From an uncultured virus (IMG/VR IMGVR_UViG_3300037488_003116) (lineage: Duplodnaviria > Heunggongvirae > Uroviricota > Caudoviricetes): DNA of 20,000 bases. Shown here one piece after another: positions 14,106 through 20,000 of the stretch; positions within the stretch are counted from its first letter, which is position 1; each line of letters opens with the position of its first letter. The position numbers and the translations under genes were made by a program. Location: IMG/VR virus record IMGVR_UViG_3300037488_003116. One strand, given 5' to 3'. The notes beneath the pieces are model-generated. The model had not been told where the DNA came from. It was given only the letters and a program-made list of their open reading frames with translations, and made no database searches.

Positions 14106-14183
14106 TTAGAATGAACGTCGTCGGGATGTCTGGCTCGTGGCGCGAATGATTTTCTTATGAAGCTTCTTAAGGAATTTAAACAT
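14106..14183 (-). CDS. Basic 25-aa peptide MFKFLKKLHKKIIRATSQTSRRRSF
   Basis: CCCTAACTAAGGA leader/SD then ATG; fills the gap. Confidence 0.5.
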   Translation of the reverse strand: MFKFLKKLHKKIIRATSQTSRRRSF

Positions 14184-14203
14184 AAAGAGTCCTTAGTTAG
14201 GGT

Positions 14204-14247
14204 GAGAAGAAACCTGAGTGCCCCACTCAACGAATGGGCACTCAGGT
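14204..14247 (-). terminator. Probable intrinsic terminator
   Basis: 12-bp stem ACCTGAGTGCCC/GGGCACTCAGGT followed by TTCTTC on the minus strand. Confidence 0.55.
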
Positions 14248-14254
14248 ACGGTTG

Positions 14255-14455
14255 TCAGACTAAATAATCGGCATAATCGGCGAAGATCTCATCATCCTCT
14301 TCGAGTTCCGGCACTCCTAAGAGTGCCAGCAGTGTCGATCCACCCAGGGATCGGTGGGCATCTTCGTCACGGTCGCTTCCGAGGAACAGCTCCCAGTCTT
14401 GCTCTTGACTGGGGTCCGGCTTGATCATTTTCGGCATATAGTTAGGCTTGCGCAT
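14255..14455 (-). CDS. Small acidic hypothetical protein (66 aa)
   Basis: AAGGAG SD before ATG 14455; ...ELEEDDEIFADYADYLV. Confidence 0.7.
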   Translation of the reverse strand: MRKPNYMPKMIKPDPSQEQDWELFLGSDRDEDAHRSLGGSTLLALLGVPELEEDDEIFADYADYLV

Positions 14456-14483
14456 ACGAAACTCCTTCTGAAAAAATGTGGTA

Positions 14484-14514
14484 GGAAAGAAGGGAAGGGG
14501 TCTGTCCCCTCCCC
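14484..14514 (-). terminator. Probable intrinsic terminator
   Basis: GGGGAGGGG-acaga-CCCCTTCCC then TTCTTT just after the 14521 stop. Confidence 0.55.
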
Positions 14515-14520
14515 GTAACA

Positions 14521-15036
14521 TTACTTTATGATCACACCGTAGGCAGTGAGTACCGCCACGGCCTTGGTCACTACACGGGTCTTGGACTTCGGGTTGATGC
14601 CCAAGTCCTGACCGGTCAACTCTTTGACTCGGGCCAGGATCTGCGACGCCGACAGGCCCTGCAACGAGACCGTCTTGATCTCGATCACGGTCTTACCCGT
14701 AAGCAGATCGCAGGCATAACGATGAGCTTCTGGGCCTGCCCAGAAGAATTTGACTGCGGCCAGTAGCTTCTCCAAGGCTATCGGGTTCTGTCTCACCATC
14801 TGCCATACCCGGTACTTGGTCTGGTTGTAGATCGACCGGCCCAGGTTCTGCCTGAAGGCCTTGTCCCGGCCCTGGCCGGGAACGTTCTCGACGAGCGTCG
14901 AGTACACGACTGCATCGGCCGCGTCGATACGGGCTTTCACTGCCATGGCCTCTTCAGCCAGGGCGACTTCCCTGTTATGGGATTCGACAACGAGACGGGG
15001 AGCGGCTTTCACGAACGCATCACGCATTGTATTCAT
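14521..15036 (-). CDS. Hypothetical protein (171 aa)
   Basis: GGAGGT SD before ATG 15036 (MNTMRDAFVK...). Confidence 0.8.
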   Translation of the reverse strand: MNTMRDAFVKAAPRLVVESHNREVALAEEAMAVKARIDAADAVVYSTLVENVPGQGRDKAFRQNLGRSIYNQTKYRVWQMVRQNPIALEKLLAAVKFFWAGPEAHRYACDLLTGKTVIEIKTVSLQGLSASQILARVKELTGQDLGINPKSKTRVVTKAVAVLTAYGVIIK

Positions 15037-15175
15037 CTGATACCTCCATTTGGTTAGATGAATTAAAGAATTGGGAACTACGGGCTTACAACCGTCACCC
15101 CTTTCGTAGGGGTGGCCACATTGCAGGCCCATCAGGGCCTGAGTTCTGTGTTCGTCAGCGAAAGTAGCGCATCAA

Positions 15176-15193
15176 TTAGTTGCGAATAAACAT
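15176..15193 (-). CDS. Candidate micro-ORF MFIRN
   Basis: AACCCTATAACCACGGAGG-8 nt-ATG TTT ATT CGC AAC TAA. Confidence 0.45.
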   Translation of the reverse strand: MFIRN

Positions 15194-15267
15194 TCGGGGT
15201 GCCTCCGTGGTTATAGGGTTGCGGGGTTAAGATATAGGTGCTGAGATACCGGCAATTACATTACCCA

Positions 15268-15285
15268 TTAGCTCCGGGTAAGCAT
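15268..15285 (-). CDS. Candidate micro-ORF MLTRS
   Basis: AACCCTAACCACGGAGG-4 nt-ATG CTT ACC CGG AGC TAA. Confidence 0.45.
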   Translation of the reverse strand: MLTRS

Positions 15286-15336
15286 AGAGCCTCCGTGGTT
15301 AGGGTTAACCGTGCAGAGTGATGATGATGGGATTGA

Positions 15337-15654
15337 TTAAGGGAGAGAAGGAAAGTCACCGCCGATGACCCCGGTGATCCAGAGGCATTGGAGATGCTGA
15401 AGATTGATCTCCGGGATATCCACCACCACGGCAGAGATCCCGTACGCATTGGGGGAGGTCTTGCCCCAGTAGATCGGAGTGTCTTTGCCTGCCTCGGTGT
15501 CTACGAGATGGGCACATCCTGAAGACACCACCCGATCGGTTATGGTTGGAATATTGAGGACCTCATCCTCGATATCGTATTCCAAAGTGAAGACCACATC
15601 ATTGTCGAGATCAACTGAGTGAGAGGGCAGGGTCTCATAGACAATCTGAGGCAT
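15337..15654 (-). CDS. Acidic hypothetical protein
   Basis: AAAGGA SD; 105 aa. Confidence 0.8.
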   Translation of the reverse strand: MPQIVYETLPSHSVDLDNDVVFTLEYDIEDEVLNIPTITDRVVSSGCAHLVDTEAGKDTPIYWGKTSPNAYGISAVVVDIPEINLQHLQCLWITGVIGGDFPSLP

Positions 15655-15687
15655 AGTTTTCCTTTCGTTAGGGGTTCTGTTGGTTAG

Positions 15688-15867
15688 TTACACCTTCCTG
15701 TAGATATTGAAACCAATCTTGACCTCATCGGTGCCGGGCACCGTGATGTTACCTTCGGTCGACGAGATGACAACTGACTTGCCCGACGAGGACTTACCAA
15801 AGTCCTTGGTCAAGTCAACCGTGATCGTGAGGATTGGACCGTTCAGCTTGAACTCTACGTTCTTCAT
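15688..15867 (-). CDS. Small beta-rich protein (59 aa) of a conserved hypothetical family
   Basis: Not in track; AAGGAG SD; MKNVEFKLNGPILTITVDLTKDFGKSSSGKSVVISSTEGNITVPGTDEVKIGFNIYRKV. The G.SxSGK..IxST.GN motif is recalled from bacterial hypothetical proteins. Confidence 0.8.
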   Translation of the reverse strand: MKNVEFKLNGPILTITVDLTKDFGKSSSGKSVVISSTEGNITVPGTDEVKIGFNIYRKV

Positions 15868-15903
15868 ACAGACTCCTTGAAAAGGTTTATGGATTGTTAT
15901 TAA

Positions 15904-15958
15904 AGGGGACCCCCCATGACTCAGTCATGGGGACGCACCGGGCTTAACCCCTCCCGGT
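15904..15958. repeat. 55-bp double-hairpin direct repeat, copy 1
   Basis: 54/55 identical to 16871-16925. Confidence 0.97.
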
Positions 15959-16842
15959 TAGCTCTTTAAGCCGTGATCAAGTTCATCCATTTGAATAAAT
16001 GCGTACTTATTACGATATGCGTTGGCATACCGTTCTATGAACCCTTCTCGTTCTAATATCTGATTTTTCAAGGAATTAAAGAAATCTGAAAGGCGAGCGG
16101 TCTTTTTATTGTATCCGGGGTTATTAAAAATTCCTTTTCGTAGAAGGTTGTATTTATTTTGTTCTTCTAAAAGAATCTCCCTATGCTTTGATCTGATGTG
16201 CTCGGGGTGAAAATTGAATTCATAGCTGGCATAAGCAAGAGGAAAAGAAAATATGGGAAAAGAATCAATGCGTGTATCTATGCCTTCTTTGACGTCTCGA
16301 AAAGAATCTACATAACAAACTAATTCACCATCATATATACTCGTGACAATATTTATCTCATCATCTCCGTAGATAGCGGTACGTAATGCCAAACCCATAG
16401 TTTCAGTTGTTCTATGATAGGGTATCTTTATTGAATGGCTTGTATCATGGGACAGTTCGCCATTAACAAATATCAGATTGTCTTTGACGATGAATTCAAT
16501 TTCGATAGATCTATCGAGAATCGTTTCTAGACAAGGGCCATACCGTTTATCAAAGGCAGGAAAGAGACTTTTATTTACTAAAAGAGAATGGTTTAATATT
16601 TCTTCCATATTAAGGTCAACCCTTATTCCGAATGCGCATTTTTCATATTTGCTATCTCCTAATATTTCCAGTAGGACGAGAAAATTAAACGCCTTCCATA
16701 GAGCTATTATTCCGCAGGCAATAATTATAAATTTGTCGAGACCCTTATAGGCTCCTGTTACATGCAAGAAGATCATGACCATTATTCCTAAGATAAAGAA
16801 CAGGGGATAAGGTCTGAAATAACTTTTAATTTTTTCTTTCAT
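15958..16842 (-). CDS. AT-rich predicted membrane protein (294 aa, two N-terminal TM helices)
   Basis: AAAGGAG SD before ATG 16842; hydrophobic PLFFILGIMVMIFL and FIIIACGIIALWKAFNFLVLL; visibly lower GC than the flanks. Confidence 0.85.
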   Translation of the reverse strand: MKEKIKSYFRPYPLFFILGIMVMIFLHVTGAYKGLDKFIIIACGIIALWKAFNFLVLLEILGDSKYEKCAFGIRVDLNMEEILNHSLLVNKSLFPAFDKRYGPCLETILDRSIEIEFIVKDNLIFVNGELSHDTSHSIKIPYHRTTETMGLALRTAIYGDDEINIVTSIYDGELVCYVDSFRDVKEGIDTRIDSFPIFSFPLAYASYEFNFHPEHIRSKHREILLEEQNKYNLLRKGIFNNPGYNKKTARLSDFFNSLKNQILEREGFIERYANAYRNKYAFIQMDELDHGLKS

Positions 16843-16870
16843 ACACACTCCTTTGAATTGAATATTGTTT

Positions 16871-16925
16871 AGGGGACCCCCCATGACTGAGTCATGGGGA
16901 CGCACCGGGCTTAACCCCTCCCGGT
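16871..16925. repeat. 55-bp double-hairpin direct repeat, copy 2
   Basis: AGGGGACCCCCCATGACT(G/C)AGTCATGGGGACGCACCGGGCTTAACCCCTCCCGGT. Confidence 0.97.
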
Positions 16926-16933
16926 AATGGTAA

Positions 16934-17341
16934 CTATTGCATGCGGTCTAGCATCTTGGCGTATGCCGTCACCGTCCTATCATATTTTTTTGCCTCATAC
17001 GTGTATGCGTAATTGGCTGGGTCACTCTTGGCCAAGTATTCATACAGAGTACATTTTGCCTGGGCCAATTCCTTAATCGCCCGATAATACGTGGCCTTAT
17101 TAAGGGGTTCGAGTTGCCCCCGAAGCTTTTCACACCGAGCCCGGGCCTGGATCACATGACCCTTAAGGATAAATAAGGAGTCTGTCTTCTCAAGCTCCGC
17201 CGATATTGAATCGGTCAGAGCAATGGTTTGTATGACCCCGCCGACATCGACCTGAGTCAGAGCTGGGACCTGGGCATGGGACACGACTGAAAACAGGACG
17301 GCCATCAGAAACAGAGCTATAATCACTGAGAAATTTCGCAT
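16934..17341 (-). CDS. Secreted protein with Sec signal peptide (135 aa)
   Basis: AGGAG SD before ATG 17341; MRNFSVIIALFLMAVLFSVVSHA-QV signal peptide. Confidence 0.8.
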   Translation of the reverse strand: MRNFSVIIALFLMAVLFSVVSHAQVPALTQVDVGGVIQTIALTDSISAELEKTDSLFILKGHVIQARARCEKLRGQLEPLNKATYYRAIKELAQAKCTLYEYLAKSDPANYAYTYEAKKYDRTVTAYAKMLDRMQ

Positions 17342-17473
17342 AGGATCGATCTCCTGAGAGGGTTGGGTGAAAGAGTTAGGGGGAAGGAAAGAGTGGTTGT
17401 TAGCGCCCTTCCCCCTGGTTTGTGTGAATTTATATCCTACTGTATTCTTTACGTCCCCAATAGGCAATGGTCT

Positions 17474-17515
17474 TCACGAGCCATCCAGGGACGGACTACT
17501 GAAGAAATGTATCAT
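17474..17515 (-). CDS. Candidate micro-ORF MIHFFSSPSLDGS
   Basis: GGAG-6 nt-ATG ... TGA. Confidence 0.35.
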   Translation of the reverse strand: MIHFFSSPSLDGS

Positions 17516-17572
17516 AAATTTCTCCGGTATGGCTATGGAAGGAACTTGAATGCGCTAGTCCCTTCCTGATGA

Positions 17573-17706
17573 GATGACTGTTTATTACCGTCATACGGAT
17601 TGTGGCAGTCATCATACCACACCTGTGTATGCCACAGGATTCGCTGGGCTATGTTCTGGATGTGGTGCCCAGCCCCACATCCAGCAGGTCCCGTATATTT
17701 ACGTCC
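17573..17706 (-). ncRNA. Predicted structured RNA element A (two tandem pseudoknots)
   Basis: Complementary pairs 17656-65/17675-84 with 17643-49/17667-73; 17601-07/17630-36 with 17573-78/17608-13. Confidence 0.55.
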
Positions 17707-17731
17707 TACGGGTTACTGACAACCTATCGGC

Positions 17732-17767
17732 TCAGTATGACGAGGACGACCTACCGGTTTTGTTCAT
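17732..17767 (-). CDS. Candidate micro-ORF MNKTGRSSSSY
   Basis: AAGGAGGT-4 nt-ATG ... TGA. Confidence 0.45.
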   Translation of the reverse strand: MNKTGRSSSSY

Positions 17768-17795
17768 GTCTAACCTCCTTCATGGGTTAGCGGGG

Positions 17796-17891
17796 TTACG
17801 ATTTGGTCGTTTTGCGCTTGGCCCGTTTCTTGGGCCGCTGACGATGTCGCAGGACACCGTCCGATGACTCGTAGTCAGAGGGGCGATGCAT
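17796..17891 (-). CDS. Basic 31-aa peptide MHRPSDYESSDGVLRHRQRPKKRAKRKTTKS
   Basis: GGAGGT SD + ATG. Confidence 0.5.
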   Translation of the reverse strand: MHRPSDYESSDGVLRHRQRPKKRAKRKTTKS

Positions 17892-18003
17892 AGGATACCT
17901 CCGGATAGTGGTTTATGGAAAAGCCAATGTAGGGTACGCTCCCTAAATCAAGGATGTCTCCTTGACTCGGCTCAGGACATTCGGGTTCAAAACAATCTGG
18001 CAT
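17875..18003 (-). CDS. Small acidic protein (42 aa)
   Basis: AAGGAG SD before ATG 18003 (MPDCFEPECPEP...). Confidence 0.5.
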   Translation of the reverse strand: MPDCFEPECPEPSQGDILDLGSVPYIGFSINHYPEVSYASPL

Positions 18004-18061
18004 CTGTTCTCCTTGGCTAAGGTTGAAGGAAAACCCACTGGCCTTATCAGTGGGCATAGAG

Positions 18062-18631
18062 TCAGGACGTAAGAGCCATGATGGCCTTATAATCCTTTTT
18101 GTCGTCGGCAGAGTCCGGCCCGTCTAGGGGCTGGAGCTCTAGGATAGAATCAAGAGGAAGGGTCATGGCCTGCCCATCCTTGAAAGTCGTCGGTTTGAAT
18201 ACCAGTGGTAGCCCACATATGGGGCATTTTTTTCCCTCGGTTCCGGTCACGTCTAAATGAAAAGGGCATGTCCATTCCCCCTCGACTGGGAGCCAACGAG
18301 ACACCTCCGCCTTACTCAAGGTTTTTGCTTCATCAAATATCCCGTCATCACCCATAGGTGCAAACGAGGATTTTCCGAAGCCGTAGCCGTGAGCTATGGC
18401 GCACAGCAGATAGAGCCGGGGTGTAGTGCCCTTCTTGGCCACTACTGATTGCGTGCTGGTGAAGGCCCACCAGGTCGGGGTGGCATCCATGACCTCTGTG
18501 GTCACGGAGTACTTGCTGGTCTTCAGGAGCATCGGCCATGGTGCTCCTTTGATCGTTTTTACGGTCTTCTCTGTCATGATCGAGAAAACCGTACCCGCTT
18601 TAAGAACGGGCACGATATGAGATACGTCCAT
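18062..18631 (-). CDS. Hypothetical protein with an internal heavy-metal-binding (HMBD-like) motif
   Basis: AAGGAG SD; WTCPFHLDVTGTEGKKCPICGLPLV resembles YTCPMHP...PGKCPxCGMxL. Confidence 0.8.
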   Translation of the reverse strand: MDVSHIVPVLKAGTVFSIMTEKTVKTIKGAPWPMLLKTSKYSVTTEVMDATPTWWAFTSTQSVVAKKGTTPRLYLLCAIAHGYGFGKSSFAPMGDDGIFDEAKTLSKAEVSRWLPVEGEWTCPFHLDVTGTEGKKCPICGLPLVFKPTTFKDGQAMTLPLDSILELQPLDGPDSADDKKDYKAIMALTS

Positions 18632-18644
18632 ATTTTCTCCTTTT

Positions 18645-18955
18645 GCCCGTACGTGGGCCTCATGGCGGGCATCGGTGGATTCTTATCCACACTACAGCCC
18701 GCGACGGTCACGAGTCAACATTGACCCGTGACTGCCCGCACCTAAGCCGGGTGCGGTTCGGCAGGGGCGGTATGTTTAAGGTCCCCCACATTGGGACCAG
18801 TCGTGCCACCCTCATCTTACCCCTGCATTGGGGTGGCTCGGACATACCTGCCGTATGTCAGGGCGAGCACCTCGGATACTCCATACGCCCGGTGCCCACG
18901 TATGGAGAATTAACGTCCCCGGAAACCCTGCTTAGGTTGTCTCGGTTGGGACATA
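18645..18955 (-). ncRNA. Predicted structured RNA element B (about 310 nt; two pseudoknots plus several hairpins)
   Basis: Almost every segment has a complement, e.g. 18879-87/18899-907 with 18865-71/18891-97, and 18805-11/18831-37 with 18761-67/18820-26. Confidence 0.6.
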
Positions 18956-19145
18956 ATTTTATACTTACATATCACGTCCTACGGTTCGGAATGACGTCAT
19001 GCCATTCTTTTTCGAAGGATCAAACCTCCTCGGTTAGGGTTTAGTCACGTCCTTGTGACTCTTATGGGGTTTCGTACCCACGTCCCGGCGACCCGTCTTA
19101 GGTTCCGGACGTCCAGTGAGTATTACCGTCCCCACTGGCGGGACC

Positions 19146-19160
19146 TCAACACAATAACAT
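19146..19160 (-). CDS. Candidate micro-ORF MLLC
   Basis: TAAGGAGG-4 nt-ATG TTA TTG TGT TGA. Confidence 0.4.
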   Translation of the reverse strand: MLLC

Positions 19161-19205
19161 CGGCCCTCCTTAAGGTTAATGGTTAGGCCCCCGACACGGG
19201 GGCGG

Positions 19206-19424
19206 TTAGTCGTCGTCGCGGGGGGACAGACTGTCCCAGCAACGATCTTCGACCGTGTCCATATCGACGTCTTTAACCTCCTGACCGTTTTCGCTGACGG
19301 TCAGAATGTTCAGTTCCCCCGGCTCGGGGGGAGAGTCGAAACCAAAGGTAAATGGTTTCGATCCAAAGTCCACACTGAACTTGACGTCTAATATTCGCTC
19401 GTCAATAACTATTTGAGTGTGCAT
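19206..19424 (-). CDS. Small acidic phage-type protein (72 aa)
   Basis: AAGGAGG SD before ATG 19424; ...DSPPEPGELNILTV... Confidence 0.8.
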   Translation of the reverse strand: MHTQIVIDERILDVKFSVDFGSKPFTFGFDSPPEPGELNILTVSENGQEVKDVDMDTVEDRCWDSLSPRDDD

Positions 19425-19435
19425 TGTCCTCCTTT

Positions 19436-19820
19436 GCCCCACGACTTGGAACGGGGGCTGTGCATTACAGGGGAGAGCTACTCCCCTGTCCTCTGCACTG
19501 ACTGATTAGCTAACCTCAGTCAGGTTTAATGGTTTATCCGTACCGGCTCATTGCAAGAGGGGCCGGTCAGACTTGCCTGTTACGTTGTTGCTGGTTAGGT
19601 AGCCTGTCGATTTTACCCCCTCGACAGACCCCCTGCGGTCAGACCGGGAGGGACGCTCCCGGAGCTAGGCACGGGCTATCCGCATAGCCCTACTTATAAC
19701 ACCCTGCACACAAGCCATTAATTATGCAGGTTTATTGTGGGGGTTTATAGACCATATGGGTTATAGTCTCCCTTGCTTTTCGGATCAAACATAATCAGGA
19801 TAAACAAGGCAACCTGATTC
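19436..19820 (-). ncRNA. Predicted structured RNA element C (hairpin-dense, about 380 nt)
   Basis: No ORF of 60 aa or more; about nine stems including ACAGGGGA/TCCCCTGT, CTGACTGA/TCAGTCAG, ACCGGC/GCCGGT, CTGTCGA/TCGACAG, CCGGGAG/CTCCCGG, GGGCTAT/ATAGCCC, AATCAGG/CCTGATT. Confidence 0.55.
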
Positions 19821-19847
19821 TGTTCGGGTCTAATTTTTTCAGGGTGA

Positions 19848-19877
19848 TTAGACCAACACCCTTGTCATTACTTTCAT
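19848..19877 (-). CDS. Candidate micro-ORF MKVMTRVLV (an in-frame ATG at 19943 would give 31 aa)
   Basis: GAGGAGGTG-tat-ATG ... TAA. Confidence 0.45.
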   Translation of the reverse strand: MKVMTRVLV

Positions 19878-19957
19878 ATACACCTCCTCTAGGTTGTTAA
19901 AGGTTAGCACCTTAACGACCCATAGGCGGTGAATGAATGACATTCAATCCTGCTTAC

Positions 19958-19989
19958 ACTATAAAGAAAAAGTAAGTGAGTAAAGTCAA
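19958..19989 (-). promoter_or_regulatory. Possible sigma70-like promoter for the leftward transcript
   Basis: TTGACT (19989-84) and TATAGT (19963-58) in AT-rich DNA, but the spacer is 20 nt. Confidence 0.3.
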
Positions 19990-20000
19990 TTGCTTTTTCT

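Follow-up and report, generated by a model that had tools for sequence, protein, structure and literature searches.

Micro-ORFs in the mosaic early region of an uncultured Caudoviricetes virus: candidate orphan gene starts between non-coding RNA modules

Genes, gaps and micro-ORFs of the window

The DNA considered here, referred to as the window, is a stretch of 20,000 nt from an uncultured Caudoviricetes virus (IMGVR_UViG_3300037488_003116), whose credible genes all lie on the minus strand. Between positions 14,106 and 19,957 these genes are separated by four unusually long intergenic gaps, which carry seven open reading frames of only 4 to 13 codons (micro-ORFs), each with its own Shine-Dalgarno (SD) sequence (Table 1). 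A first-pass annotation had described these frames, together with two basic peptides of 25 and 31 aa, as an array built on a repeated unit of SD, micro-ORF and structured RNA. All seven frames and both peptides were reproduced on the minus strand, and the ATGA overlap between LILRKRMA and MTSFRTVGRDM was seen again in the sequence. The dismissal of stop codon recoding as their explanation also stands, because every frame in the gaps is interrupted by two or more kinds of stop codon and none is a single-stop frame; as the real genes moreover use all three stops (TAA in 20, TGA in 15 and TAG in 3), an alternative genetic code was ruled out.

Matches to PHROG and to Pfam were each obtained for 4 of the 40 ORFs, two of the Pfam matches being below the curated cut-off, and the informative ones correspond to DUF4262, DUF2997, radical SAM and a few PHROGs of unknown function. 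No tRNA or tmRNA was detected in the window. A blastn search of the window against 50,697 phage records gave no match, a viral contig collection yielded no relative when probed with two proteins, one alignment or three DNA patterns, and the single 23-residue match of a genome-contig search (L003) was taken as chance. Three homologues of the 189-aa protein were found, with 57-59% identity, and one metagenome scan led to two related loci, L001 (1.1 kb) and L002 (10.2 kb). Window-related DNA is also present in contigs from sediment and freshwater metagenome runs (DNA only), and those of runs X1, X3 and X4 are used below; the run contigs leave 16010-16813, 18221-18421 and 19628-19828 without cover, and no conclusion was drawn from this.

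The two basic peptides are both ordinary conserved small genes. Where X1 and X3 contigs run on as loose ends, the 25-aa frame stays open and carries changes that are synonymous or conservative; the N-terminus of the 31-aa frame matches a 55-aa ORF of L002 (11 of 14 residues identical), and a 3-nt insertion seen in the 31-aa ORF among the run variants keeps the frame. Another small gene, encoding 42 aa (17875-18003, minus strand), is a 5′-truncated relative of a 45-aa gene of L001. The 45-aa protein (L001 944-1078) matches at residues 8-27 the same residues of the 72-aa protein of the window (19206-19424), and at residues 23-37 the start of the 42-aa protein. The small proteins, too, are mosaics.

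Table 1. Features of the micro-ORF region and related motifs (window positions unless stated otherwise)
Feature	Position	Strand	Remarks
MKVMTRVLV	19877-19848	-	TAA stop; with cassette 19848..19891 (CTAACC...GAGGAGGTG)
MLLC	19160-19146	-	TGA stop; with cassette 19146..19175 (CTAACCATTAACC...AAGGAGGG)
LILRKRMA, TTG start	19023-18997	-	TGA stop; cassette AACCCTAACC-GAGGAGG (repeat family D2)
LILRKRMA cassette + MTSFRTVGRDM	18965..19041	-	two frames overlap by ATGA
MNKTGRSSSSY	17767-17732	-	TGA stop; with cassette 17732..17783 (GTAACCCCGCTAACCC...AAGGAGGTT)
MIHFFSSPSLDGS (MIHFF frame)	17515-17474	-	TGA stop; ATG supplied by 3′ end of 254-nt module
MLTRS	15285-15268	-	TAA stop; with cassette AACCCTAACCACGGAGGC 15268..15306
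MFIRN	15193-15176	-	TAA stop; with second copy of TAACCACGGAGGC (13-nt identity), 15176..15229
25-aa basic peptide	14106..14183	-	real small gene
31-aa basic peptide	17796..17891	-	real small gene
Gap 1	19956-19425		unusually long intergenic gap
Gap 2	19205-18632		unusually long intergenic gap
Gap 3	17795-17342		unusually long intergenic gap, 454 nt
Gap 4	15336-15037		unusually long intergenic gap, 300 nt
Gap 1 non-coding RNA	19498..19847	-	matches no Rfam family; not present in L001 or L002
Gap 2 non-coding hairpin-rich RNA	18632..18964	-	no Rfam family; absent from L001 and L002
254-nt structured multi-hairpin module	17502..17755	-	imperfect 13-nt direct repeat at its bounds
Twister-P5 ribozyme (RF02684)	19440..19497	-	Rfam 41.4 bits vs gathering score 37.6
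Pistol-like repeat, copy 1	16871..16925	-	upstream of low-GC 294-aa gene (16842-15958); 30.9 bits
Pistol-like repeat, copy 2	15904..15958	-	upstream of 59-aa gene; 30.0 bits
Pistol-like repeat in L002	L002 2822-2876		single copy
Three-hairpin RNA motif, 75 nt	15078..15152	-	upstream of 171-aa gene; L002 3117-3186
Promoter-like repeat, one copy	19957..19999	-	found by blastn against relatives; at very end of window

Gene-start cassettes and mosaic junctions

Six of the seven micro-ORF starts copy the gene-start signal of the phage's own genes, a cassette of the form TAACC...GGAGG...ATG. The motif TAAC[CA]/CTAAC stands between -45 and -9 in six of the seven, against a background of 0.217 of gap positions, and among the real genes it occupies the same place in 6 of the 12 located above 14 kb and in 6 of the 32 below. 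CTAACC is present seven times in the gaps, compared with 0.73 in shuffled sequences, none of which reached seven in 1000 trials. The form AACCCTAAC(C)..GGAGG heads LILRKRMA and MLTRS but also real genes, at 1329-1308 in the window and at 2207-2236 and 9680-9705 in L002 (genes at window 1308, L002 2234 and L002 9703), and TAACCAA(A)TGGAGGTA has been swapped between genes, since it precedes the 171-aa gene in the window and the 163-aa gene in L002. A repeat search returned only the start cassettes and one 55-nt pair, and a site scan called no promoter-like or terminator-like site at the cassettes. This composite signal at the micro-ORFs is clearly non-random. The frequency of SD and ATG pairs taken alone tells less: with five unique sites in 1,760 nt of gap it is moderately above chance (1.2 in dinucleotide shuffles, 26 of 2000 of which reach five; one site on the opposite strand), but the density, 2.8 per kb, is close to the 2.0 per kb of coding sequence (17 in 8,424 nt).

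Compared with its relatives the window is a mosaic, with breakpoints that fall at start codons, stop codons or cassettes. A promoter-like repeat of ~65 nt is found in tandem in L002 (5 copies, 1393-1685) and in L001 (4 copies, 183-409); it is a putative promoter, which a sigma-70 scan did not call. In both loci this array lies upstream of the first gene and joins directly the SD of the 189-aa homologue, and window 19950-18635, with gap 1, a twister ribozyme, the 72-aa gene and gap 2, is absent from both; the homology picks up 3 nt ahead of the ATG at 18634 and extends to 1 nt past the stop at 18061. Further along, L002 has 40 nt between the 55-aa gene and the 135-aa homologue where the window has the 454 nt of gap 3, it lacks 15680-15153, which comprises the 105-aa gene, MLTRS and MFIRN, and it carries one pistol-like motif and no 294-aa gene. 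The promoter-like repeat was also seen in an X1 contig, in which it leads into yet another gene start.

The run contigs reveal variation within the micro-ORFs themselves. One X1 contig stops matching at 17501, and its loose end, once reverse-complemented, reads as the SD, the ATG and the first codons of MNKTGRSSSSY. Joined to the window sequence it yields a single frame of 12 codons, with SSPSLDGS after MNKT, which lacks the 254-nt module 17755-17502; this fusion is a reconstruction from a 30-letter consensus, in which the absence of the module is deduced from the loose end. The module, whose closing helix holds the ATG of the MIHFF frame, looks like an inserted or deleted RNA module within the micro-ORF. 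A second X1 contig keeps its first hairpins and diverges at 17696. X1 also has 379 other letters in place of 15306-15412, with the break at the first base of the MLTRS cassette (15305), and in X3 MFIRN holds two 1-nt insertions (15178 and 15179), with further indels close by at 15152, 15173 and 15195. The micro-ORF peptides are not conserved, since X1 fuses two of them (in the reconstruction), X3 has these indels in or beside MFIRN, and the corresponding segments are missing from L001 and L002. Over 17349-17781, an X3 contig has six differences and three gaps, compared with 6-15% divergence in X3 contigs of similar depth over the flanking genes, a hint that gap 3 is under constraint or else was exchanged recently.

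We propose, with about even confidence, that the micro-ORFs are orphan gene-start cassettes that sit where non-coding RNA modules meet their neighbours, in an early region of mosaic structure. The window would correspond to the promoter-proximal, mosaic ("hyperplastic") part of the phage, whose genes would be joined by a recurring junction cassette formed by a stop codon or a TAACC-type C/A-rich spacer, a strong GGAGG SD and an ATG 4-9 nt further on, and these cassettes would be the sites of module gain, loss and exchange. If a cassette is followed by a strongly folded non-coding RNA and not by a gene, its ATG would open on non-coding sequence and the frame would meet a stop after 4-13 codons. 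Ribosomes probably bind to these starts, because they are as accessible as real ones and have stronger SDs, and the resulting peptides would be by-products. The gap RNAs, for their part, may be functional products that the ribozymes excise.

SD strength, start accessibility and ribozymes

The strength of the SDs was calculated as the duplex energy with a generic anti-SD, which may differ from the 16S 3′ end of the host. On this scale, five micro-ORFs gave -15.9 (MKVMTRVLV, the strongest among them), -12.6, -12.9, -9.5 and -9.5 kcal/mol, and LILRKRMA -13.0 kcal/mol in the site scan, against a median of -8.4 kcal/mol for the real genes (n=44), only one of which is at or below -12.5 kcal/mol. The values of MIHFF, MLTRS and MFIRN are ordinary (-6.6, -9.5 and -9.5 kcal/mol). 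The energy required to open the micro-ORF starts is 5-8 kcal/mol, as for real starts, with the exception of MLTRS (10.0).

Several of these and other observations weigh against a neutral origin of the micro-ORFs as leftovers of module junctions. The SDs of MKVMTRVLV, MLLC, LILRKRMA and MNKTGRSSSSY (-12.6 to -15.9 kcal/mol) exceed those of 43 of the 44 real genes, and micro-ORF SDs account for 4 of the 12 strongest anti-SD matches of the 20 kb, of which three gaps cover less than 8%, a comparison biased by the choice of strong sites in the first-pass annotation; such a strength is not required of neutral leftovers. Six of the seven starts fall within the most open 9-30% of the 25-nt windows of the folded gaps, and a Fisher combination of the seven openness fractions, done by hand, gives ~0.04. 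The SD and ATG of MNKTGRSSSSY have been kept in X1, X3 and X4 contigs despite two 1-nt insertions. Full-length genes behind these very cassettes, by which the first-pass annotation expected decayed remnants to be recognised, were not found in L001, L002 or the short run contigs, and the same type of cassette heads real genes. The comparisons rest, moreover, on two related loci and the short contigs of three runs, and gaps 1 and 2 have no independent relative among the material compared.

A very strong SD at the head of a long untranslated RNA, accompanied by its mini-frame or not, could instead have been selected as a ribosome roadblock of the STAB-SD or ermC-leader kind, in which a retained 30S or 70S ribosome blocks 5′-to-3′ decay, and this would be relevant for a transcript cut by ribozymes into pieces with 5′-OH ends. 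In Bacilli, a strong SD, even without a start codon, is described to stabilise long untranslated RNA, and the 5′-OH product of glmS self-cleavage to be degraded by RNase J1 (PMC3997798); the STAB-SD is reported to bind the 30S subunit and to block RNase J1 (PMC4113751). Each of the three long gaps of the window begins with a strong SD, the first ~70 nt after the promoter-like repeat and the others 29-52 nt after a stop codon, and the four energies cited above, the accessible starts, the SD and ATG of MNKTGRSSSSY shared by the contigs of three runs, and the presence of a twister and two pistol-like motifs within the same operon all fit such a role. On the other hand, equally strong SDs stand before ordinary genes in the relatives (L002 2219, 4464 and 7303; L001 1090), and three of the seven micro-ORFs have ordinary SDs; the role would moreover require a host with a 5′-to-3′ exoribonuclease such as RNase J, and an SD close to the 5′ end of the RNA, whether native or processed. 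The X1 contig devoid of the 254-nt module has a weaker SD, a single case that can be read either way. The unusually strong SDs, together with the ribozymes located in that transcript, lend a measure of support to the ribosome-loaded RNA stabilisers put forward in the first-pass annotation, and we regard selected roadblocks as possible, if on the unlikely side. The orphan-start and roadblock explanations can coexist.

The twister-P5 match covers the model from end to end (1-58 of 58; whole-window E 1e-05), and its 3′ end lies 5 nt ahead of the SD that serves the 72-aa gene (ATG at 19424), so that cleavage there would part the ~480-nt gap 1 RNA from the downstream mRNA. The pistol-like motifs are the two copies of the 55-nt direct repeat (family D1), 98% identical and spaced by 967 nt, which flank the 294-aa gene of ~37-42% GC. 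Both align with positions 23-68 of the pistol model (RF02679) in a cmscan search, below its gathering score of 34.5, and no pistol match was returned for L002 at E<=1. The copies hold P2, P3 and the GU junction. By eye, P3 is kept in L002 through an added U-G pair, and an ACCGGG directly 5′ of P2 can form 6 bp (5 bp in L002) with a CCCGGU in the junction, a possible pseudoknot, although the ACCGGG strand does not lie within a P1 loop and the three sequences show no covariation. Model positions 1-22, which include P1, are unmatched, and the sequence upstream of ACCGGG differs between both copies and L002; disruption of P1, the hairpin whose loop takes part in the pseudoknot of pistol, is reported to cause a substantial loss of activity (PMC4604425). 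In an X4 contig, the motif appears with other flanks on both sides. The repeat could be a variant of pistol that has no P1, or else a junction cassette of palindromic form. Words of the form CATGACT(C/A)AG, the half-site of the pistol-like P3 palindrome, recur many times in L002 680-1260, a non-coding stretch upstream of the promoter-like array, which suggests that the palindrome might be a protein-binding site at the DNA level. An X1 contig joining 15923 to 16891 switches strand at the palindrome and holds a piece of 96 nt that shows 0 differences; assembly may have produced this join artificially, and therefore the loss of the low-GC gene rests on L002.

A more elaborate version of the roadblock would bring both elements into one selected device, in which an early transcript with several long, unclassified structured RNAs would be cut by the twister and a new P1-less pistol variant, and mini-frames with a "super-SD" in front of each RNA would park ribosomes that shield the 5′-OH products from 5′-to-3′ decay. 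We consider this device doubtful.

Folded RNA in the gaps and other proposed functions

The gaps do not behave as copies of one unit of SD, micro-ORF and structured RNA, because local alignments between gaps score 17-24, compared with a shuffled maximum of 24-32. They have in common only the gene-start cassette and two short words, and within gap 2 the only stretch to be repeated measures 26 nt. Structured RNA behind the micro-ORFs was borne out in part: gaps 1 to 3 fold well (z-scores of -5.9, -4.6 and -4.55), gap 4 gives -1.5, and the two adjoining coding stretches (14521-15036 and 18062-18631, minus strand) reach -4.1 and -3.95, against +0.1, -1.2 and -0.9 for three distant coding stretches below 13.2 kb (25 shuffles for each coding stretch). 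As nearby coding sequence folds almost as strongly, strong folding is a property of the whole 14-20 kb region and not of the gaps alone. Gap 3 is asymmetric, with -4.55 on the transcribed strand versus -1.43 on the other, and gap 1 less so (-5.9 versus -4.4). The 3′ end of the gap 2 RNA carries the SD of the 189-aa gene. As known RNA families, Rfam scans gave only the twister, plus pistol-like matches below threshold; the other matches at E<=10, of 12-18 bits to miRNA, sRNA and riboswitch models, were taken as chance. A plus-strand gene in gap 2 (133-aa ORF, 18643-19044) was rejected, as it has no homologue and does not appear in the protein collection.

Pseudogenes that conserve the SD and the first codons would also leave short frames behind strong starts. 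Truncation does occur in this region, as seen for the 42-aa gene with respect to the L001 45-aa gene, and for the 31-aa gene, shorter than its 55-aa homologue of L002. However, in a tblastx search with the four gaps as queries, no coding similarity to the masked window, L001 or L002 emerged, and the conserved RNA motif alone was returned; each minus-strand frame contains 8-15 stops in the three long gaps and 4-7 in gap 4; gap 3 folds far better on its transcribed strand; and no long ORF was found behind these starts in the two loci examined. Decayed genes are in our opinion quite improbable.

The first-pass annotation also offered leader-peptide switches and minigenes of the lambda bar type, for both of which we obtained little support. 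In a leader-peptide switch, translation of the micro-ORF or stalling on it would refold the downstream RNA and control the next gene. Short frames with good SDs do lie upstream of folded RNA, four consecutive Ser codons occur in MNKTGRSSSSY, and the predicted fold of gap 1 pairs the SD of MKVMTRVLV with the anti-SD-like CACCGCCU. Against this, terminator-like sites were called nine times on both strands, four of them on the minus strand, and none of them follows a micro-ORF within a gap; the next gene is 130-450 nt away, and in gap 1 a ribozyme intervenes; the length and sequence of the frames vary among the run variants, and the relatives carry the same downstream genes without any such leader. 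A switch of this kind seems very unlikely.

Minigenes or ribosome sponges would act in host shut-off, through peptidyl-tRNA drop-off or ribosome capture. Toxicity of minigenes is described as greatest for the shortest frames, with drop-off fading at 8-13 codons (PMC2490762). MLLC, MLTRS and MFIRN, with 4, 5 and 5 codons and good SDs, would suit this role, and LILRKRMA, with 8, still falls within the 2-8 codon span of minigenes, but the frames of 9, 11 and 13 codons are outside it and four of the seven are 8-13 codons long. As to a sponge, GGA words are not enriched (39 vs 38.3 in shuffles), which also discards one of the CsrA type, and seven sites would be few for one. We give this family of explanations hardly any credit.

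Compared with known systems, orphan gene starts at module junctions recall the PeSL, mobile regulatory cassettes known from T4-type phages (Arbiol et al. 2010, PMC2839356). These short conserved cassettes, as described there, repeat at gene boundaries of hyperplastic regions and bound the indels and replacements between relatives, much as the 55-nt pair flanks here a foreign, low-GC gene absent from L002. The PeSL of that account combine a sigma-70 early promoter and a terminator stem-loop, in contrast with the stop codon or TAACC, SD and ATG, or the pistol-like motif, found here. The STAB-SD and ermC leaders, which stabilise the 5′ ends of Gram-positive mRNAs, as presented in PMC4113751 and PMC3997798, share with the micro-ORFs a very strong SD that yields no useful protein upstream of a long untranslated RNA, but in the window every SD is followed by a start codon and a frame of 4-13 codons. 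Close and intergenic twister and pistol-like motifs are reminiscent of the phage ribozyme clusters of Harris et al. (2015, PMC4604425), where pistol RNAs are reported near phage genes and near other ribozymes, with the difference that the motif described here is without P1 and stays under the gathering threshold. The micro-ORFs are not directly explained by either ribozyme. To our knowledge, there is no sequence likeness between the micro-ORFs and lambda bar. With respect to architecture, the lambda bar minigenes, in the account of PMC2490762, also consist of an SD, an ATG, very few codons and a stop in a phage early region, but three of the seven frames here exceed the 2-8 codons for which an effect was measured.

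If the micro-ORFs are orphan starts, they would be a by-product of modular gene shuffling, and a warning that a pair of strong SD and ATG in the intergenic RNA of a phage need not mark a peptide. The early operon also packs ~1.5 kb of non-coding RNA that matches no Rfam family. What twister and pistol ribozymes do in phages has yet to be settled, and a stretch in which ribozymes, gene starts and very strong SDs are interleaved offers a concrete locus for models of processing and protection; if the selected device were true, it would link the self-cleaving ribozymes of phages to ribosome-based RNA protection.

Two further observations concern RNA elements of the region. The 75-nt three-hairpin motif upstream of the 171/172-aa gene, with no match to an Rfam family, is nearly identical in L002 (its leading stretch is identical), where the flanking genes are 70-75% identical; consensus folding gave no covariation for this motif (2 sequences) or for the pistol-like repeat (3 sequences). 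Finally, gaps 2 and 3 contain seven copies of the word GGACGT (GGACGU in RNA) on the strand that is transcribed and a single copy on its complement, versus 0.5 in shuffles (0 of 1000 reach seven); its sites, at 19114, 19085, 19052, 18979, 18918, 17706 and 17456 (minus strand), are mostly paired in the predicted fold.

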